Part shown: positions 1,430 through 64,000 of the stretch, piece after piece
Position numbering within the stretch: the stretch's first letter is position 1
Layout: every line of letters begins with the position of its first letter
Assembly (NCBI GenBank): GCA_038214715.1
Contig: JBBQRP010000012.1
Coordinates: forward strand, 43,634 to 107,633
From: Thermoanaerobaculia bacterium
GTDB lineage: Bacteria; Acidobacteriota; Thermoanaerobaculia; UBA5066
Direction of reading: 5' to 3'
DNA: 64,000 nt
Made by a program: the position numbers and the translations under genes
Notes under the pieces: model-generated
What the model was told of the DNA's origin: nothing
Seen by the model: the letters and a program-made list of their open reading frames with translations, nothing else
The model's database searches: none

Positions 1430-3687
<2,258 letters not shown>

Positions 3688-3883
3688 CGCTGTTCCTTTC
3701 GTTCAATCCAAACCGCGATTCTAGAACTCCTCGCGCACGTCCGAATGATGCGGACGCACTAAGACCGCCGAATCCGTTCTCCAACGGCATCGAGAGTGGC
3801 CGTAGCCCGTCCCAAGCGGGCTCTTCGCGAGCGACCTCGTGCCGCTATCCCAATGCGTGACGGAGGCGCAAACCTGAGTTAAC

Positions 3884-57106: not shown

Positions 57107-58300
57107 CTAAATGCCGACGCGCGCCGTCAGGGTGAGCCCGAGCGCGCTCTTGTCGGTTCGGTACCAGCCCCCGAGATCCACCTTCGCGGGCCCGATGACG
57201 ACGCCCGCTCCCCCCGTGAAGGCGGGGGTCTTGTCCGGCGATTCGAGGTTCACCGAAGCGCCGCCGCGCACGACGACGACGAGAAGCGTCCACTCGATTC
57301 CCGCTCCGAGCTGCCGCACGCGAAGGTTGTCGACGAGCGTCTCGTTCGCGGTGAGGTCGTAGTCCGCGGCGACGAGGATTCCCAGGATAGGGACCTTCAC
57401 GGACGCCCCGATGCGGGCCTGGCGGCCCCAGGCGACGGAGCGGCCGCGGTCCGCCGCGGGGCCGTCGTCGGCGAAGGGAAACGAAGGCTTGTTGATTCCG
57501 CGCACGACGCCGCCGACGTGGACGGGCCCGAGAGACACCAGACCCCCGACGTCGATCGAAAAGTCCGTGTGAGAGCGCGTACGGCCCGTGAGGGCGCGCT
57601 GTGCGAGGTTCCAGGGATCTCCGACCTCGGTCGTGAACGCGGACTCCTCTTTCGTGTACGTCGAGCCGAACAGCGCGTGAACCGAAGCGCCGACCGTGAC
57701 GCGTCCAAGGAAGAACGACATCGACTTGCCGAGGGCGACGTCTTTGAGCTCGAGACCCCGGAAGAGCGCGCCCGAATCGTTGAAGGCGATCGAGGTGGCC
57801 GGGTTCGATCCGAGCGCCGTGTGCACGAGGTCCGTCCGCGCCGTGAGGCCGCTGAAACCCCAGTCCGTGAACGAAAGCTCCCAGCCGCTGTGCGCGAGCG
57901 CGAGGCCGACCACGCCGGTTCCCGTGACGCCGTTTCCAGGATCGCCGAGCGTGCGGAGGGCTTGCACGACGTCCGCGTAGCTCTGCGGCTGCGACCCGGA
58001 CGCGAGCGACAGGGGGCTGTTTCCCGAGACGACGCGGAGCGGGCCGAGGAAGTCGCCGCTCTCCCGGGTGAGGAGCCCGGCCGAAACCGCGAACGCGAAG
58101 TTCCGGGCCGGGACGGCGGCGGGATTGTCGATTCCGGCGGCGACGTCAGACCCGAGACCCACGGACGCTCCGCCGAGAGCGACCGAGCGCGCTCCGAAGG
58201 GTGAGAAGGGCATCTGCGCCAGGCCCGCCCCCGCCCACAGGACCGTGGCCGCGAGAGAGGCGAGGACCCTCCGTGGGAACGAGGAGGACCGCGTCGGCAT
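57107..58300 (-). CDS. Putative outer-membrane beta-barrel protein (hypothetical)
   Basis: Signal peptide (VLASLAATVLWAGAGLAQ) and alternating amphipathic beta-strand pattern rich in Gly/Ser/Thr. No family assignment. Confidence 0.55.
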   Translation of the reverse strand: MPTRSSSFPRRVLASLAATVLWAGAGLAQMPFSPFGARSVALGGASVGLGSDVAAGIDNPAAVPARNFAFAVSAGLLTRESGDFLGPLRVVSGNSPLSLASGSQPQSYADVVQALRTLGDPGNGVTGTGVVGLALAHSGWELSFTDWGFSGLTARTDLVHTALGSNPATSIAFNDSGALFRGLELKDVALGKSMSFFLGRVTVGASVHALFGSTYTKEESAFTTEVGDPWNLAQRALTGRTRSHTDFSIDVGGLVSLGPVHVGGVVRGINKPSFPFADDGPAADRGRSVAWGRQARIGASVKVPILGILVAADYDLTANETLVDNLRVRQLGAGIEWTLLVVVVRGGASVNLESPDKTPAFTGGAGVVIGPAKVDLGGWYRTDKSALGLTLTARVGI

Positions 58301-58354
58301 CGGGCTCCAGTGTACGGTGAGAGGGTGCGTTGACCGTGAAAAAGCAAGGGTGCT

Positions 58355-58717
58355 ATGTTCCGGCCTCGTTTTGCAGGAGGCGAATTGCCCGATCTCGGAA
58401 ACAAACACAACTGCTTCAAGTGCGGAACGAAGTTCTACGACCTGAGGAAAACGCCCGTGCACTGCCCGAAGTGCGGCGCCGACCAGAAGGACGCTCCTCC
58501 GCAGCCGACGTCTCCCGTCGTGCTCCACGCCGCGCGCCGCGCGAAACGCGACGAGTTCGCGGATCCCGACGTCTTCGACCGCAACCGCGAGGACGAAGAC
58601 GTGGCCACCGGCGAGCCCGAGGACCCGGCCGCAAAGCGCGTGGATGACGACGAGGAGCTTCCGCTCGGTGAAGCCAAGACGCTCGAAGGCACGGAAAGCG
58701 GCGAAGACGACTACTGA
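58355..58717 (+). CDS. Small C4 zinc-ribbon protein with acidic C-terminal tail (FYDLN-type)
   Basis: LGNKHNCFKCGTKFYDL...CPKCG plus a D/E-rich tail. An in-frame alternative TTG start at 58385 has a GGAGG RBS. Confidence 0.6.
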   Translation: MFRPRFAGGELPDLGNKHNCFKCGTKFYDLRKTPVHCPKCGADQKDAPPQPTSPVVLHAARRAKRDEFADPDVFDRNREDEDVATGEPEDPAAKRVDDDEELPLGEAKTLEGTESGEDDY

Positions 58718-59297
58718 GGTCGCGGCGCGCCCGCGATCCGTCTTCGTCGCGATCGGGCTGGGCTCGAATCTGGGAGACCGGAGAGAAATTCTCCAAAAGG
58801 CGACGAGAGCGCTGGCGGCCCTCCTGGAAGGCGCCCGTTCTTCATTTCTTTATGAAACGTCCCCGGTTGGCGGCCCTCCCGGCCAGGCCGACTACCTCAA
58901 CGCCGTCGTCGTGGGGCGATCGAGATTCTCCGCGCAGGCTCTCTTCACCCTTCTAAGAAAATCCGAATCCATCGCCGGCCGAAAGAGAGAGCGTGGCAAG
59001 CGAAACGCGCCCCGCACGCTGGATCTCGATCTCCTCCTCTACGGAACAGAACGAATCTCGACCCGCCGCCTCACCGTGCCGCACCCGCGCATGACGACCC
59101 GCCTCTTCGTCCTCGTACCTCTCGCGGACGTCGCGCCGCGGCGCGTCGTCCCCGGGACCGGGAAGACGGTGACCCGTCTCCTCGCCGAAGCCCGGCCGAC
59201 CTCGGCGGAGCGCGTCACGCGCTTCCGGCCTGTCAGGACGCGGGGGCGAGGGGCAGGAGCCGCGCCTCGACACGCAGCTGGTCGTTCGGCAGGGTGA
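58668..59297 (+). CDS. folK: 6-hydroxymethyl-7,8-dihydropterin pyrophosphokinase (HPPK)
   Basis: VAIGLGSNLGD and RTLDLDLLLYG HPPK motifs. The start is uncertain: GTG 58668 or ATG 58644, both overlapping the upstream gene. The 3' end overlaps convergent cysE by 65 nt. Confidence 0.65.
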   Translation: MKPRRSKARKAAKTTTEVAARPRSVFVAIGLGSNLGDRREILQKATRALAALLEGARSSFLYETSPVGGPPGQADYLNAVVVGRSRFSAQALFTLLRKSESIAGRKRERGKRNAPRTLDLDLLLYGTERISTRRLTVPHPRMTTRLFVLVPLADVAPRRVVPGTGKTVTRLLAEARPTSAERVTRFRPVRTRGRGAGAAPRHAAGRSAG

Positions 59298-60132
59298 CGC
59301 GCGTGCCCGGAGGAACCGAGGCCGTGAGCCAGACGCTTCCGCCGATGACGCAGCCCTTTCCGATGACGGTCTCGCCGCCGAGGATCGTCGCCCCCGCGTA
59401 AATGACGACGTCGTCCATCACCGTCGGATGGCGCTTCGTTCCTCGAATGAGCTCGCCGCGCTCGTTTTTCGGGAACGAGACGGCCCCGAGCGTGACGCCC
59501 TGGTAGAGCTTCACGCGGTCGCCGATGTCCGTCGTCTCCCCGATCACGGTTCCGGTCCCGTGGTCGATGAAGAAGGACGATCCGATTCGCGCCCCCGGAT
59601 GGATGTCCACACCCGTTTCGAGGTGCGCGAACTCGGTCATGATGCGCGGAATCAGCGGCACGCGAAGCTCGAAAAGGGCGTGCGCGAGGCGATAGGTGAA
59701 CACTGCCCTGAGACCCGGGTAGGCGAGGATGATTTCGTCGAGACCGGTCGCCGCGGGGTCTCCGTCGAACGCGGCGCGCACGTCCGCCGCGAGGAGATCC
59801 GAAATAAGGGGAAGCGTCTCGAAGAAACGAGTCGCGAGATCCTGCGCCGTCTCGCGCGTGCGCGACTCAACGGGCAGGGCCTTCTCGATCTCGCACGCGA
59901 GCCGCAGGTGGAGGCGGAAGAGGACGTCCCCGAGGTGGTCGCGGAAATTCGCCCGGTAGAGCACCGTGTGGCCGAAGTAGCCGGGGTACACGACCTCCTC
60001 CAGCATCCTCAGGATCTCGATGATCTCCTTCTTCTGCGGCTTCGGCTGTGCGTCGACCGCCGAGAGGAGCGGCCTGTTTTCCGCGCCCGCCACGATCCGG
60101 TCGATGGCCTCCCTCAGGCGCGCGTCTTCCAT
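59233..60132 (-). CDS. cysE: Serine O-acetyltransferase
   Basis: SATase N-domain and left-handed beta-helix hexapeptide repeats (IHPGARIGSSFFIDHGTGTVIGETTDIG...). Confidence 0.85.
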   Translation of the reverse strand: MEDARLREAIDRIVAGAENRPLLSAVDAQPKPQKKEIIEILRMLEEVVYPGYFGHTVLYRANFRDHLGDVLFRLHLRLACEIEKALPVESRTRETAQDLATRFFETLPLISDLLAADVRAAFDGDPAATGLDEIILAYPGLRAVFTYRLAHALFELRVPLIPRIMTEFAHLETGVDIHPGARIGSSFFIDHGTGTVIGETTDIGDRVKLYQGVTLGAVSFPKNERGELIRGTKRHPTVMDDVVIYAGATILGGETVIGKGCVIGGSVWLTASVPPGTRVTLPNDQLRVEARLLPLAPAS

Positions 60133-60144
60133 CGCGTCATTCTC

Positions 60145-61020
60145 TCATTTGGAGGCCCAGACCTTCAGGAGCTGCGCGGCCTCTTCCTGCGTCTTCCGGT
60201 TCTCCACGAGGTACTCCGGGTCCGGTGTTTCCGCGACGATCTTCTCGAGCATGGCGCGGGCCTCCGCGCGGCGGGCGCTCTCGTAGTCCCAAATCGCCTC
60301 GGCGAGGAACTGGCGCCCGACGAGGTTGTGCGGCCCAACCTCGACGCCGAGACGGAGGTTCTTCAACGCCTCCGTCCGCGACGCCCAGCCCGTGAGGAAC
60401 GGCACGGAGGGGGTCTGGTGATGCAGCCGTCCGAGCACGCGGTACCCTCCCCCTCCGTCGTACGCAGGGTCGAGAAGGATCACCGCCTGCGCATAGTCGC
60501 GGATTTTCGCGGCCGCCCCCTGTTTCACGGCCGCGCCTTTCCCGAAGGCGAGCGCCCACTTTCCCCAGTCCACGGACGCCCACAGGAACGTCGGGACGAC
60601 GGACGAATTGCCCACGAGGTAGGGGACGAGCTCGACCGGCGTCGCCTTCGCGAGGTCCCGGCTGGAATGGCGGGCGGCCTCGCGGCGGAGAATCGCGAGC
60701 GACTGCTCGGCCACCGTGCGCCCCTCGTCGAAGATCGTCTTTTTCACCGCGGAATCGTCCGTCGTGTGCTCACCCTTGAAGTAGAGCGCACGCATGAGGC
60801 GCCACCGCACCTCGAGCGAGTCCGGCTCCGCGGCGAGGGCGGTGCGACAGGCGGCGATCGCAAGGTCGATCGGCGCCGAAAGGGCGTGCCCGCCCGTCGA
60901 GCCTTCGGCGCGGTGGCTCCACAAGCGGTCTAGATCGGCGTTCCTCGGGGCGGACCCTTCCGCCGCGAGCAGGCACGGCAGGAGGACGACGAGCGCGAGA
61001 AGGCGGGAGAGTCGTCGCAT
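60145..61020 (-). CDS. Secreted hypothetical protein (helical, TPR-like?)
   Basis: Signal peptide MRRLSRLLALVVLLPCLLAAEG. No confident family. The track ORF extends to 61065. Confidence 0.5.
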   Translation of the reverse strand: MRRLSRLLALVVLLPCLLAAEGSAPRNADLDRLWSHRAEGSTGGHALSAPIDLAIAACRTALAAEPDSLEVRWRLMRALYFKGEHTTDDSAVKKTIFDEGRTVAEQSLAILRREAARHSSRDLAKATPVELVPYLVGNSSVVPTFLWASVDWGKWALAFGKGAAVKQGAAAKIRDYAQAVILLDPAYDGGGGYRVLGRLHHQTPSVPFLTGWASRTEALKNLRLGVEVGPHNLVGRQFLAEAIWDYESARRAEARAMLEKIVAETPDPEYLVENRKTQEEAAQLLKVWASK

Positions 61021-61082
61021 GGGTCCACTATACTGGCGCGCCTCTTGCGAAGAAGGCTCACCCACGAATTCGAGGTGCCTCC

Positions 61083-61403
61083 GTGGCCGATCAGGATCCC
61101 AAACCCGACTCCCAGCCTCCGCCCCTCCAGTTCTCGATCGACGACACGGTCGCGAACGGGGTCTACGTGAATTTTGCGAACATCATCCACAATCCGGCGG
61201 AGTTCGTCCTCGACTTCGGGCGCGTCGTTCCGGGACGGAACGACGTCCGCGTCCTCTCGCGCGTGCTGACGACTCCCGTCCACGCAAAACAGCTCCTCAA
61301 CGCCCTCGCGCAGAACGTCGCGCTCTACGAGAAGACGTTCGGGGCGATCCGGACGGACTTCGAAACGCAGCGCGCCGGCACCGACTCCTTCCGTCCCAAC
61401 TGA
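61083..61403 (+). CDS. DUF3467-like small protein
   Basis: YVNFANIIHNPAEFVLDFG motif characteristic of DUF3467. GTG start. Confidence 0.55.
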   Translation: MADQDPKPDSQPPPLQFSIDDTVANGVYVNFANIIHNPAEFVLDFGRVVPGRNDVRVLSRVLTTPVHAKQLLNALAQNVALYEKTFGAIRTDFETQRAGTDSFRPN

Positions 61404-61424
61404 CCCACAAGGAAGACCAGACCG

Positions 61425-61940
61425 ATGAACCCGAGAAGTTTCCCGATCCTCGCCCTCGCCCTCTCTCTCGGCTTCGTGGCGGGCGCGGCCCCCGCGGCCG
61501 CCGGCGCCTCTCCCGTCCGGCCGAAGCCGGTCGCCCCCGAGGTGCCCATCTTCGACGGCGACGCGATCGGAGTGAAACAGGTCGTCGACTACCAGAAAGT
61601 GGCCCAGGACTCCGGACGCCGCCTCCTTCTGGTGTTCGGCACGAACGATTGCGCCCCTTGCCGCGCGTTCAACAAGGCGATTCACCAGAAGCAGTTCTTC
61701 TCCGCTTTCATCAACCAGTTCGTCCCCGTGTACATCGACGTCTCGAGCGGCACGAACGCGTCGCTCCTCGTCGACTACAACATCAATCCCGCGGCCCCGC
61801 AGCCCGGCATCGTCATCCTGATGCCCGACGCCCGGATCACGGACGTTCTCGCGCAGGGCGAGATGGCGACGCTCGCGAAGAAGGGCGACGCCGCCGTGCA
61901 GGAATTCTTTCTCGCGCGGTTCGCGAAGTCGGAAAAGTAG
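61425..61940 (+). CDS. Secreted thioredoxin-fold protein (CxxC)
   Basis: Signal peptide, CAPC redox motif within LLVFGTNDCAPCRAF, and an AAGGAAG RBS. Confidence 0.7.
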   Translation: MNPRSFPILALALSLGFVAGAAPAAAGASPVRPKPVAPEVPIFDGDAIGVKQVVDYQKVAQDSGRRLLLVFGTNDCAPCRAFNKAIHQKQFFSAFINQFVPVYIDVSSGTNASLLVDYNINPAAPQPGIVILMPDARITDVLAQGEMATLAKKGDAAVQEFFLARFAKSEK

Positions 61941-61988
61941 CGCTCCCCGATCCACTTTAGTCCCCTGGCCTCTGGCAGAATCGGCGCG

Positions 61989-62573
61989 GTGGCATCCCCG
62001 CGAAGCGCGCCTCAGCTCGAGCCCGACTCCGGCGATCTCCTGCTCGTCGCCGCGAGTGACGGCGCCGCGTTGACGCGCCTCGTCACGCGCTGGAGCCAGC
62101 CTGTCTACGCGTTCTTCGAGCGTACCCGTGAGCCTTCGGCCGCGACGGAAGCCGCGCTCTCCACGTTCGAGCGTCTCGTGTCGAGCGCGCCGCGCTATGC
62201 GCCCGACGTCCGGTTCCCGGCGTTCCTCTGGGAAATCGCGGTGAAGGTCGCGCAGGACGGCACGTCGAGCCGGGTCCTCGAGATTCCCTCGGCGAAGCTC
62301 GCCGAGTCCGCGGCCGCGAGGACCGCGCTCGTGCGCTCCGCGATCGCGGCCCTCCCCCCCGCCGAGCGGGCGGCGTTCCTCCTGACACGCGTCGTCCGGC
62401 TCTCGACGTCCGCTGCCGCCGAGGCGCTTGGCACCACGGACGCGGACGTGAGGCGCCGCCTCGTGAACGCGCTCGAGCTCCTGCGCGAATCCCTCGCCCC
62501 CCTCCTCGAGGGCCCCGCCGCGGCGTCCGCTCCGGCCGGGCCTCCCGGCGGGCGAGAGGAGGCGGAACCGTGA
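61989..62573 (+). CDS. ECF-type RNA polymerase sigma factor
   Basis: Sigma-70 region 2-like and region 4 HTH (ERAAFLLTRVVRLSTSAAAEALGTTDADVRRRL). GTG start. Confidence 0.72.
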   Translation: MASPRSAPQLEPDSGDLLLVAASDGAALTRLVTRWSQPVYAFFERTREPSAATEAALSTFERLVSSAPRYAPDVRFPAFLWEIAVKVAQDGTSSRVLEIPSAKLAESAAARTALVRSAIAALPPAERAAFLLTRVVRLSTSAAAEALGTTDADVRRRLVNALELLRESLAPLLEGPAAASAPAGPPGGREEAEP

Positions 62574-63538
62574 CGTGCGCCGAGCTCCGCGAGAGGATCG
62601 TCGACTCGGCGTCCGGCTCGCAGGGCGGGCACGCGCCGGTCGTCGCCCACCTCGAGGAATGCGCGGACTGCCGTGCCGCCGCGCGCGAGTACGGGGCCCT
62701 CGACCGGCTCGTCCGTCCGGCCACGCCTCCCGCGCCGCCGCCGGATTTCGAGAGACGTCTCCGCCAGCGCCTTTCCGTCGGATCCCGGCACGCCGTCTCG
62801 AGCGCGTGGATGCTGGGCGGCGCGGCCAGCGTCCTCGCGCTCGCGGCGCTCCTGGCCCCGCGTCTCTTCCGTGACGCCCCGAAGTCCCGGCCCGTCGCGC
62901 CCCCATCGCGCGCCGAGGCGAGACCGTCGCCCGTGCCCGCGCCCTCTCCGGAAGCGCCGCCGCCGGACATCGTCGCCGTGCGCTCGACGCCGATCTCCTT
63001 TCAGGCACCGCCGCTGAGCGCGGAGGAGAAGGCCGAGGCCGCTTCCCTTCACGATTTTGAATTCCTCAATTCGTTCCAGATGCTCGCGCGTCTCGACGCC
63101 TTCTTCCCGGAGCCCGTCGGACCTCGCGCGCCCGTGTCGATGCCGGCCGGCGGCTTCCCCTCGCGCCCCCCCGATTCGCCCGACGCGACGACCGGCCGCT
63201 TCCTCGACTGGCAGCGGGCGTCGCGCGCCGAGCGCGCCAGACTCTCCGCGCTCGAGAAGTCGTTTCGCGACCGCCCCGAGGACGAGCGTTCCCTCCTGGA
63301 AGCGCGCTGGGCTCTCGTCCGCGACTTCTCCGAGGACCAGCGTTCGGGGCTGCGCCGGCTCGCGAGCCGGATGGACGAACTCGACTCGCGCGCCCACGCC
63401 CGGCTCGAATCCGAGATCCGGCTCATCGGACACCTCCCCAGGGAGCAGCGCCCGGCGCGCTGGCGGGTCCTTCCGTTCGCGAAGCCGCTCACGGGCCAGG
63501 AGCTCGCAAGCGCGGAGCGTCTGCTGCTTTCCCGCTGA
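62570..63538 (+). CDS. Anti-sigma factor with ZAS-type zinc motif (HxxxCxxC) and TM helix
   Basis: [14 protein letters not shown] near the N-terminus, one TM helix ([16 protein letters not shown]), and a Pro-rich periplasmic region with an RW-rich C-terminus. GTG start in a GTGA overlap with the sigma-factor stop. Confidence 0.68.
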
Positions 63539-63587
63539 CGACTCCTTCTCCCTCTTTCACGCCGATCGTCCCGTAGACTCCCGGGTC

Positions 63588-64000
63588 ATGGCCGAAAGAG
63601 CGCCTGCTCCCGCGTTCCAGCCCTGGATTCCGGCGACCGAGTCACCCGCCGAGTTCACGTTTCGAGCGGTGGCGCTCGGATCGGTCCTCGGAATCGTCTT
63701 CGGCGCCGCGTCCGTCTACCTCGGCTTGAAGGTGGGCCTGACGACGTCGGCCTCGATCCCGATCGCCGTCATGGCGATCACGATCCTGAAGAAGCTCGGG
63801 AACTCGACGATCCTCGAGAACAACATCGTGCAGACGACGGGATCGGCCGGCGAGTCCGTGGCTGCCGCCGTGGTGTTCACGATCCCCGCCCTGATCTTCC
63901 TCGGGTTCCCCATGAAGATACCCGTGACCTTCCTCATCGCGCTCACGGGAGGCGTTCTCGGAGTCCTTCTCATGATCCCGCTTCGGCGCTATCTGATCGT
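63588..64000 (+). CDS. OPT-family oligopeptide transporter (N-terminal fragment; continues beyond the window)
   Basis: [15 protein letters not shown]...[27 protein letters not shown], typical of the OPT/TIGR00728 N-terminus. The open frame runs to the window end. Confidence 0.7.

Follow-up and report, generated by a model that had tools for sequence, protein, structure and literature searches.

The closest described counterpart of the anti-sigma factor analysed here is RsiW of B. subtilis, its nearest solved relative. This membrane-anchored protein, with a C3, H30, C34, C37 pattern, does not respond to oxidation and is controlled through intramembrane proteolysis (PMC5358783), which is carried out by PrsW/RasP. 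A CHCC zinc motif is also found in RsrA, the soluble anti-sigma factor of SigR in Streptomyces coelicolor, whose redox determinants E39, E40, L45 and E46 are conserved among the sensitive ZAS proteins (PMC3177212). In the RpoE-RseA-RseB system of E. coli and the AlgU-MucA-MucB system of P. aeruginosa the anti-sigma factors, RseA and MucA, lack a zinc site, and the periplasmic partners RseB and MucB are beta-rich lipid-binding proteins.

The locus described here occupies positions 61083-63538 of a 64 kb stretch of DNA (the window) from a member of the Thermoanaerobaculia (Acidobacteriota). A genuine alternative sigma factor and its membrane-bound inhibitor are present in the region, which resembles a conventional envelope-signalling switch, albeit one whose fused sensor domain is unusual, rather than a disulfide-stress circuit, because the secreted thioredoxin belongs to a separate, apparently sigma-54-driven unit. 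Its likeness to SigW/RsiW comprises an anti-sigma gene co-transcribed downstream of the ECF sigma gene, a cysteine at position 3 followed by H-x3-C-x2-C, a four-helix anti-sigma domain, a single membrane-spanning helix and, at the C-terminus, a domain outside the cytoplasm. That last domain is an all-alpha DUF3106, unrelated to the corresponding domain of RsiW, and the anti-sigma factor with its fused DUF3106 departs modestly from an already known type of ECF switch.

Gene content and layout of the locus

All four plus-strand open reading frames were confirmed where a first-pass annotation of this DNA had placed them, and an independent gene caller applied to an identical public contig returned the same four genes, of 106, 171, 194 and 322 aa. 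The order DUF3467-thioredoxin-sigma-anti-sigma was kept in every related locus with sufficient flank. The first-pass annotation had suggested that the four genes form one thiol/disulfide-sensing circuit. This does not agree with their separate promoters, a sister lineage lacking the sigma/anti-sigma pair, the topology of the proteins, the unconserved redox determinants or the insensitivity of RsiW to oxidation. The interval is instead read, with a probability of about 0.6, as two neighbouring, separable transcription units. Unit A would be a sigma-54-dependent bicistron for the small DUF3467 protein of the cytoplasm and the exported thioredoxin-fold protein with its CxxC. Unit B, also bicistronic but leaderless, would be transcribed from an extended -10 promoter of the housekeeping type that is its own, and would encode an RpoE-like ECF sigma factor and a single-pass class I anti-sigma factor.

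The two units were told apart by promoter footprints, topology and comparison with the syntenic sister lineage, in which the divergent TPR gene and DUF3467-thioredoxin are kept together with the sigma-54 motif, without the sigma/anti-sigma pair. As the entire neighbourhood is syntenic, gene adjacency carries little weight. Neither Rfam nor tRNA searches across the full window gave a match, and a generic sigma-70 promoter and terminator scan of positions 60000-64000 returned zero promoters and terminators at chance level.

The DUF3467 and thioredoxin-fold genes

The first gene (61083-61403, plus strand) encodes a DUF3467 protein of 106 aa (PF11950, E 7.8e-24) with neither a signal peptide nor cysteines. 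No other gene in the cluster is as well conserved, identity across loci being 68-94% against 33-85% for the thioredoxin-fold protein. Its AF2 model was poor (pLDDT 62, beta3-alpha), and a literature search on DUF3467 found no relevant work. The thioredoxin-fold gene (61425-61940, plus strand) starts 21 nt past DUF3467 and has its own AAGGA ribosome-binding site. Its product of 171 aa matches Thioredoxin_7 (E 7e-8, above the Pfam cut-off), with 3fk8, a 'disulphide isomerase', as the best PDB match (E 1.9e-8, aligned across the CxxC). The C76-A-P-C79 motif is retained as CxxC in ∼42 of 44 orthologues, the dipeptide between the cysteines being variable and the two exceptions reading CAPS and SVAC; the Pro of 'QPGIV' is also conserved. 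From its CxxC, cis-Pro loop and fold the protein is predicted to be a thioredoxin-fold thiol:disulfide oxidoreductase, and a hydrophobic N-terminal signal-like segment predicts that it is exported to the periplasm. The DUF3467 gene and CAPC thioredoxin gene that had been described upstream in the same orientation are thus both borne out by the profile matches, and the thioredoxin by its predicted export.

A sigma-54-type element upstream of DUF3467

A search for an ECF target promoter in front of these two genes had been suggested. The conserved element found there was instead of the sigma-54 -24/-12 type, TGGCGCG-CCTC-TTGC at 61034-61048 on the plus strand (GG at 61035-36, GC at 61047-48), 35 nt 5' of the DUF3467 start codon. 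Across the 64 kb, TGGC-N7-TTGC is matched just twice, once at this site. At the orthologous position, 36 loci (28 unique sequences) carried the motif with its spacing unchanged, 21-24 nt from the GAGGTG ribosome-binding site. Its invariant form is TGGCGCG-N4-TTGCG, the N4 spacer taking 11 variants in the 28 unique sequences. The sigma-54 consensus in the 1999 compilation of Barrios et al. is reportedly TGGCACG-N4-TTGCW. With the GG and GC elements at the exact spacing upstream of a gene, 61034-61048 is a predicted sigma-54 promoter.

A TPR gene (60145-61020, minus strand) diverges from DUF3467. A -10-like TATAGT hexamer (61027-61032, minus strand) lies 6 nt before its ATG (61020) and abuts the sigma-54 -24 element. 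The CCACTATAC block at this hexamer was invariant in 27 of the 28 unique upstream sequences, and the distance from hexamer to start codon was 6-11 nt across loci. The hexamer is likely, from its position and conservation, to be the promoter of the TPR gene, giving a near-leaderless mRNA.

On the plus strand the same bases include TATACT (61029-61034), a -10-like hexamer that is equally conserved and stands directly 5' of the TGGCGCG-N4-TTGCG block, so that the block might be an operator or 5'-UTR element of a transcript from TATACT rather than a sigma-54 promoter. One clade has a small inverted repeat in the block (CCTCTT GCG AAGAGG). Neither an enhancer-binding protein gene nor rpoN was found in the window and locus flanks, and six-frame translation of the window and of the first 64 loci revealed no sigma-54 activator motif of the GAFTGA/ESELFGH type. 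This explanation is nevertheless considered very doubtful. The positions that never vary coincide precisely with the sigma-54 consensus, the spacing is exact and the four spacer bases vary freely; the inverted repeat is missing from the other clades; TATAC is lost in L061, the most divergent locus, where TGGC-N7-TTGC is retained; and the region has no Rfam family match. The TATA block is itself explained as the -10 element of the opposite-strand TPR gene, at a leaderless spacing like that of two other genes here. With a sigma-54 promoter as the preferred reading, the locus yields testable promoter predictions for an uncultured class of Acidobacteriota, namely a sigma-54 site before DUF3467-thioredoxin and leaderless -10 promoters before the sigma, OPT and TPR genes.

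The ECF sigma factor gene and its putative promoter

The third gene (61989-62573, plus strand) encodes an ECF (group 4) sigma factor of 194 aa that is RpoE/AlgU-like by its best PDB matches and has a divergent sigma2. Sigma70_r4_2 was matched with E 9e-10, passing the Pfam cut-off, Pfam Sigma70_r2 gave no match, and the TIGR02937 score of 42.1 bits fell just below the cut-off of 42.9. The sigma family profile (alignment A3) matches sigma2 (residues 20-92) and sigma4 (113-175) of AlgU, E. coli sigmaE and Mtb SigE with E of about 1e-6. The protein consists of sigma2 and sigma4 only, without sigma3 or sigma1.1, as is the rule for ECF sigma factors. The TGA of the sigma gene overlaps the GTG start of the anti-sigma gene as GTGA, an arrangement shared by the related loci for which gene coordinates were examined. 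The earlier assignment of an ECF sigma gene coupled to an anti-sigma gene therefore stands, and the sigma factor has the adjacent, co-transcribed cognate anti-sigma factor typical of the ECF family.

An extended -10-like element, TGG-CAGAAT (61973-61981, plus strand), precedes the GTG start of the sigma gene by 7 nt, with no Shine-Dalgarno sequence between them. Nearly all related loci have it in the conserved form TGGCAGAAT or TTCTAGAAT, 5-9 nt upstream of the start codon, and the sigma mRNA would therefore be leaderless. In the aligned orthologous regions upstream of the DUF3467, thioredoxin and sigma genes, no conserved -35 was found at workable spacing for GGAAC-N16-17-CGT or the AlgU-like GAACTT-N16-17-TCTGA, and the GGAAC-like -35 and CGT-like -10 expected of an autoregulated ECF gene are missing upstream of sigma. 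In both its apparently leaderless sigma gene and the absence of a visible autoregulated ECF promoter, the locus differs from SigW/RsiW.

The gap between the thioredoxin and sigma genes is just 48 nt and in the window has less predicted structure than shuffled controls (z +2.3). No terminator was detected in this spacer, so sigma-54 read-through into the sigma gene is conceivable and the units may not be fully independent. The two units could then be coupled without any thiol chemistry in the anti-sigma factor, through a sigma-54 to ECF cascade like that of hrpL in Pseudomonas syringae, through the exported thioredoxin or its substrates acting as the cue for DUF3106, or through both. The short, unusually unstructured gap and the strictly conserved gene order are consistent with such coupling, and there is a precedent for an ECF sigma gene transcribed under sigma-54 control (PMC5263251). 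Coupling is still judged unlikely, since the -10 element of the sigma gene itself is conserved at leaderless spacing in all clades, vertical inheritance of a syntenic neighbourhood accounts for the adjacency, and the split DUF3106 operons of other phyla have no thioredoxin or DUF3467 neighbour. GC-rich hairpins past the thioredoxin stop codon in several clades also speak against it, yet they are no better than shuffles. Two separable units remain the preferred arrangement.

The CHCC domain of the anti-sigma factor

The anti-sigma gene (62570-63538, plus strand) encodes 322 aa. Residues 1-73 (62570-62788) form a predicted four-helix anti-sigma domain, within which the HLEECADC segment noted in the first-pass annotation as an H-x3-C-x2-C motif was found at residues 27-34 and is of the ZAS type. 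A check on the spacing of further ligands, which had been suggested, placed C3 (62576-78) 23 residues before H27 (62648-50), completing a CHCC site with C31 (62660-62) and C34 (62669-71). All 71 homologues, extending to 38% identity, share C3-x23-H27-x3-C31-x2-C34 unchanged; the loss of the motif among orthologues for which that annotation had allowed was not seen. In the predicted structure C3 precedes helix 1, H27 is in helix 2, C31 is at the helix 2/3 break and C34 is in helix 3. The ligand motif and the fold together identify a putative zinc site.

Pfam zf-HC2 (PF13490) gave no match to the window protein at E<=1, and among 23 members of the anti-sigma family 4 matched weakly (best E 0.037). 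The family profile nonetheless reaches the bona fide zf-HC2 proteins P0277 and P0284 at E of about 1e-9, hhalign against RsiW gave 88.5% probability, and the PDB profile match had E 0.0036. The two proteins differ in the spacing from C3 to the histidine (26 residues in RsiW, 23 in the window protein) and in the usual LDGE-type loop, which is replaced here by G19-G20-H21, likewise invariant in the homologues. This triplet has no classical ZAS counterpart and could indicate a different metal or redox chemistry.

The presence of such a site next to a thioredoxin gene could be taken to suggest an RsrA-like thiol switch, in which disulfide stress would oxidise C3, C31 and C34, zinc would leave, and the ECF sigma factor would induce a thiol-repair regulon including the thioredoxin and DUF3467 genes. 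The CHCC motif is invariant, the extra invariant His21 could tune metal lability, the CxxC thioredoxin adjoins the pair throughout the clade, and the window has no detectable terminator between them. The window protein also shares with RsrA a Glu-Glu pair (E29, E30) before the first cysteine of the H-x3-C-x2-C (HLEEC against HFEEC in RsrA). The RpoE regulon of Neisseria meningitidis includes the envelope thiol-repair enzyme MsrAB. An RpoE-binding ZAS anti-sigma factor is known in that species (PMC3177212).

We regard such a switch as quite improbable here. E29 and E30 account for two of the four redox determinants of RsrA, and this pair varies in orthologues (EE, DE, QE, ES, ET, NT, HA, HS and others); the equivalents of L45 and E46 are a nearly invariant R35 and A36. 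RsrA is soluble, whereas all members of the window family have a transmembrane helix. In the literature examined, the validated redox-sensitive ZAS proteins (RsrA, RshA and RsrA homologues) are actinomycete anti-sigma factors, and RsiW, ChrR and RsuA are reported to be insensitive to thiol oxidants, the membrane-anchored RsiW being regulated by proteolysis. SigR drives trx genes from ECF promoters, whereas the thioredoxin gene here stands behind a sigma-54-type motif and, with DUF3467, is found without the sigma pair in the sister lineage. As the thioredoxin is predicted to be exported, it could not re-reduce a cytoplasmic ZAS site. An HxxxCxxC motif beside a thioredoxin gene is accordingly no evidence of redox sensing, and a structural role for the putative zinc site is preferred.

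Membrane topology and the DUF3106 module

The transmembrane helix that had been annotated was predicted at residues 74-98 (62789-62863), as a single helix over the same residues in the AF2 model. A hydrophobic 19-mer was present in 71 of 71 homologues (mean Kyte-Doolittle hydropathy 2.27). It is followed, on the predicted periplasmic side, by a Pro/Ala-rich linker (residues 99-145, 62864-63004) that is predicted to be disordered (pLDDT below 50 for residues 97-140) and is poorly conserved in alignment A1. Residues 146-322 (63005-63535) form a predicted periplasmic all-alpha module, in which an acidic/aromatic 'LHDFEFL..LDAFF' segment precedes DUF3106, the two being modelled as one confident unit (AF2, pLDDT above 90). 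DUF3106 (PF11304) scored 25.9 bits in the window protein against a curated cut-off of 24.3 and was matched by 21 of the 23 family members (best E 2.8e-8). A reciprocal link was obtained between this family and a standalone DUF3106 protein, P0375. This domain, in the C-terminal half of the anti-sigma factor, had been overlooked in the first-pass annotation, and a literature search on DUF3106 found no relevant work.

The cysteines of the zinc site are predicted to be cytoplasmic and DUF3106 to be periplasmic. No cysteine was found beyond the transmembrane helix in 67 of 71 homologues, and the positive-inside rule was indecisive on the helix flanks (3.5 vs 3.0 K+R residues).

Proposed mode of sigma release

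The most likely mode of action combines a structural zinc with DUF3106 as the periplasmic sensor and a regulated proteolysis that sets sigma free. The four-helix cytoplasmic domain would hold sigma at the membrane, stabilised by a structural zinc bound to Cys3, His27, Cys31 and Cys34. The DUF3106 module would pack onto the juxtamembrane acidic segment as a sensor or protector, comparable to RseB on RseA. An envelope cue that disturbed this module would then allow site-1 followed by site-2 proteolysis of the anti-sigma factor and free the sigma factor. No protease gene (none of the PrsW type included) and no ECF-type target promoter were identified nearby, and the release step and regulon are therefore purely inferred.

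The RpoE and AlgU systems share with this locus the fold of the anti-sigma domain (in MucA and RseA) and a periplasmic partner module downstream of it, which by analogy with RseB and MucB may modulate proteolysis. RseB and MucB are themselves unrelated to DUF3106, the zinc site has no counterpart in RseA or MucA, and the window has no rseC or degS context. A more far-reaching proposal is that DUF3106 is a widespread RseB-like periplasmic co-regulator of ECF anti-sigma factors with an unrelated fold. Its fusion to the CHCC and GGH elements would integrate a periplasmic cue with cytoplasmic thiol or metal status at a five-ligand zinc site, fed by read-through from the sigma-54 DUF3467-thioredoxin operon in a sigma-54 to ECF envelope-redox cascade. 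This we treat as a long shot.

Three-gene operons with a separate DUF3106 protein

The same modules occur in the same order in three-gene operons from Deltaproteobacteria-type and other metagenomic genomes (L069-L075), where an ECF sigma gene is followed by a small anti-sigma gene and a gene for a secreted DUF3106 protein. Standalone DUF3106 was the third gene, after the ECF sigma and small anti-sigma genes, in 5 of 5 contexts examined, and the window anti-sigma factor is therefore read as a fusion of genes two and three. DUF3106 thereby gains a context as a third member that recurs in ECF sigma/anti-sigma operons and is fused to the anti-sigma factor in the Thermoanaerobaculia clade. If it generally modulates anti-sigma stability in the periplasm, it would be a new accessory module for ECF signalling.

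In these operons, whose sigma factors are only 24% identical to that of the window, the anti-sigma and DUF3106 proteins are separate and the latter has its own signal peptide, whereas in the window protein they are joined by the Pro-rich linker. Residues 185-308 of the window anti-sigma factor are the part to which their DUF3106 protein corresponds. The small anti-sigma factors are either of the zf-HC2 type (L069, L072) or Cys-free and DUF3619-like, both types having an acidic/aromatic periplasmic tail that resembles window residues 160-180. In L069 the zf-HC2 anti-sigma factor combines C5-x24-H30-x3-C34-x2-C37 with a single transmembrane helix and, on the periplasmic side, an acidic tail.

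Identification of the four genes

The four open reading frames proposed in the first-pass annotation were all found on the + strand at the positions assigned to them, and the same four genes (106, 171, 194 and 322 aa) were predicted by an independent gene caller on an identical public contig. The names carried by near-identical proteins and loci point to an uncultured Thermoanaerobaculia bacterium (Acidobacteriota) as the source. The first encodes a DUF3467 protein (61083-61403; PF11950, E 7.8e-24), for which the AF2 model was poor and COMM-domain matches were weak though consistent. The second encodes a thioredoxin-fold protein, Trx (61425-61940; Thioredoxin_7, E 7e-8), with a C76-A-P-C79 motif and a hydrophobic N-terminal segment; its closest solved relative is 3fk8, a structural-genomics 'disulphide isomerase' (E 1.9e-8). 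The third encodes an ECF sigma factor (61989-62573; Sigma70_r4_2, E 9e-10) that scored slightly below the cut-off of TIGR02937. When 17 orthologues of this sigma factor were combined in a profile, AlgU, E. coli sigmaE and M. tuberculosis SigE were each matched in sigma2 as well as in sigma4. The fourth gene, encoding the anti-sigma factor (62570-63538), has a GTG start overlapping the sigma stop codon as GTGA.

Predicted zinc motif of the anti-sigma factor

Residues C3, G19, G20, H21, H27, C31 and C34 were invariant in an alignment of 71 anti-sigma homologues with identity down to 38%. The HxxxCxxC segment on which the original assignment was based (residues 27-34, HLEECADC) is thus fully conserved, and examination of the spacing of further Cys/His ligands identified C3, separated from H27 by a 23-residue gap, as the residue completing a CHCC set. 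The full motif, C3-x23-H27-x3-C31-x2-C34, is a zinc-binding anti-sigma (ZAS) site of the CHCC type, with zinc binding predicted. The call of an ECF sigma factor and a ZAS-motif anti-sigma was right, and the two genes very probably constitute an ECF sigma/class I anti-sigma pair.

Profile comparisons other than that with Pfam zf-HC2 support the ZAS assignment. The sole significant PDB match of the anti-sigma family profile was B. subtilis RsiW (E 0.0036), with the alignment spanning HLExCxxC and the helices after it, and hhalign against RsiW(1-87) gave 88.5% probability (E 2.7e-6). Pfam zf-HC2, on the other hand, did not match the window protein and gave weak matches in only 4 of 23 relatives. 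An exhaustive profile search returned ∼3,300 proteins matching the N-terminal 100-140 residues only, and sampled members of this set scored above the zf-HC2 cut-off.

The Gly-Gly-His sequence G19-G20-H21 (62624-62632) lies six residues ahead of the ZAS histidine and was present in 71/71 homologues. Classical ZAS proteins usually carry an LDGE-type loop at this position and have no counterpart of GGH21, which might bind the metal as a fifth ligand or else touch the sigma factor.

The DUF3106 domain

The C-terminal half of the anti-sigma, overlooked in the first-pass annotation, is a DUF3106 domain (PF11304, above cut-off), and PF11304 was matched by 21/23 family members. No close fold was found among the solved structures compared with this half, and a literature search on DUF3106 found nothing relevant. 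In the exhaustive profile search the full-length ZAS-DUF3106 architecture was limited to ∼35 clusters at 50% identity; the same search located a standalone DUF3106 protein (P0375) matching residues 185-308 of the window anti-sigma.

Gene contexts were surveyed for P0375 and four other diverse standalone DUF3106 proteins. The order ECF sigma, small anti-sigma-like protein, DUF3106 was found in 5/5 contexts (L069 2889-4564; L072 1871-3546; L073 1978-3480; L074 34-2134; L075 2018-3489), and the DUF3106 products are strongly basic secreted proteins, that of L069 having its own signal peptide. The middle gene encodes a zf-HC2 anti-sigma in two of the operons; the L069 example has the motif C5-x24-H30-x3-C34-x2-C37, crosses the membrane with a single helix and carries a highly acidic tail on the periplasmic side. 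In the remaining operons the middle protein is Cys-free with an acidic/aromatic C-terminal tail of the 'DLDFYEWLA' type, so that an acidic/aromatic periplasmic tail is common to both kinds. A similar segment occurs at residues ∼160-180 of the window anti-sigma, between the linker and DUF3106, and was modelled by AF2 as a single unit with the DUF3106 helices (pLDDT >90). Because of the constant operon order, the matching acidic tail and this joint model, the window protein is most plausibly explained by fusion of the second gene with the third in sigma/anti-sigma/DUF3106 operons of this kind. DUF3106 emerges from these comparisons as a recurrent ECF-operon component and putative general periplasmic partner of ECF anti-sigma factors.

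Predicted promoter elements

Non-coding regions were aligned across about 30-45 related loci from genomes and metagenomes. A look for an ECF target promoter upstream of the DUF3467 and thioredoxin genes had been suggested; upstream of DUF3467 the aligned loci have no ECF-type -35/-10 pair in common. The invariant block is instead CCACTATAC-TGGCGCG-N4-TTGCG. We take TGG[C/T]-N7-TTGC in this region to be a sigma-54 -24/-12 signature, the consensus reportedly compiled by Barrios et al. in 1999 being TGGCACG-N4-TTGCW. In the window the motif is TGGCGCG-CCTC-TTGC (61034-61048, +), 35 nt ahead of the DUF3467 start codon. It was found at the orthologous position with fixed spacing in 36 loci (28 unique sequences, with 11 different four-base spacers) and at a constant 21-24 nt from a GAGGTG ribosome-binding site. 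No enhancer-binding protein gene is encoded near the motif. TGGC-N7-TTGC has two matches in all 64 kb; the second (TGGCACCGGGTTTGC, 2822-2836, +) falls within a long ORF on the minus strand (1430-3790) and is therefore probably due to chance.

Only one element is conserved 5′ of the sigma gene, with the sequence TGG-CAGAAT or TTC-TAGAAT and its end 5-9 nt ahead of the start codon (61973-61981, +, TGG-CAGAAT in the window), and no Shine-Dalgarno sequence precedes the gene in the aligned loci. This element is a predicted extended -10 promoter giving a leaderless mRNA. Conserved TANNNT-type -10 hexamers 5-11 nt before the start, without a Shine-Dalgarno sequence, are shared by the ECF sigma gene, the downstream OPT transporter gene (63574-63579, +, TAGACT, 7-9 nt ahead of ATG) and the divergent TPR gene upstream of DUF3467 (61027-61032, - strand, TATAGT, 6-11 nt ahead of ATG), a pattern suggesting that this Thermoanaerobaculia lineage makes frequent use of leaderless mRNAs. 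Because the -10 element of TPR immediately adjoins the sigma-54 -24 element, the divergent promoters may compete.

Separability of the two gene pairs

Two loci of a sister lineage, L066 and L067, have the same flanks as the window (TraF_2, FYDLN_acid and TPR, then DNA_alkylation, tRNA methyltransferase and Pterin_4a). Both keep DUF3467-Trx (Trx 40% identical, CSQC) with a TGGT-N7-TTGC motif; the sigma and anti-sigma genes are absent, and DUF3467-Trx, divergent from TPR, is followed directly by the DNA_alkylation gene (L066 4173-5042; L067 5001-5866). The ECF module is a clean presence/absence polymorphism between the two lineages, and since DUF3467-Trx is kept without it, the two pairs are separable units. 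Upstream, the order of a TraF_2-like outer-membrane protein (-), a FYDLN_acid zinc-ribbon protein (+) and HPPK (+) (57107-59297) is retained in the distant relatives L065-L067, so the whole region is syntenic and the adjacency of the two pairs counts for little as a sign that they are functionally linked. The Trx-sigma gap in the window contains no terminator, and sigma-54-driven read-through into the sigma gene is therefore possible.

Redox sensing and proposed mechanism

The thiol/redox-responsive circuit first proposed from all four genes is unsupported; it is contradicted by the promoters and the sister lineage, and also by topology, the RsrA determinants and the behaviour of RsiW. Trx is predicted to be exported. 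The zinc cysteines must, on the predicted topology, be cytoplasmic, because sigma binding requires that location. In 69/71 anti-sigma homologues the only cysteines are the three at positions 3, 31 and 34, and a cysteine past the transmembrane helix is present in only 4/71; an exported Trx would therefore have no thiol-disulfide exchange with the nearly Cys-free periplasmic sensor domain. Redox sensitivity of RsrA is conferred by four residues, E39, E40, L45 and E46 (PMC3177212). Only the two glutamates corresponding to E39 and E40 are present in the window anti-sigma, both variable among orthologues, whereas the L45 and E46 positions are occupied by R35 (nearly invariant) and A36. RsiW, likewise membrane-anchored and with an identical CHCC motif, does not let go of SigW on oxidation, and its regulation is through intramembrane proteolysis (PMC5358783).

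We propose that a zinc-stabilised four-helix domain of the anti-sigma would hold the RpoE-like sigma at the membrane, that the DUF3106 module, predicted to be periplasmic and to pack against the acidic segment next to the membrane, would sense or gate a putative envelope signal, and that regulated proteolysis of the anti-sigma would free the sigma to act on a presumed regulon. The probability of this mechanism as a whole is put at roughly 60%. The advance is a modest one, a fused ZAS-DUF3106 anti-sigma, with the recognition of DUF3106 as a repeated part of ECF operons as a by-product.

Divergent neighbouring unit

The TPR protein and a serine O-acetyltransferase are encoded divergently (59233-61020, - strand) with only 12 nt between their genes, which are for that reason probably co-transcribed. 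Besides a signal peptide, the TPR protein shows a weak NCBIfam match (E 8.6e-7) to BstC, the outer-membrane protein of a sterol transporter. The acetyltransferase belongs to the EpsC type, with a score of 150.9 bits where the cut-off is 150, and is present in some related loci and missing from others.
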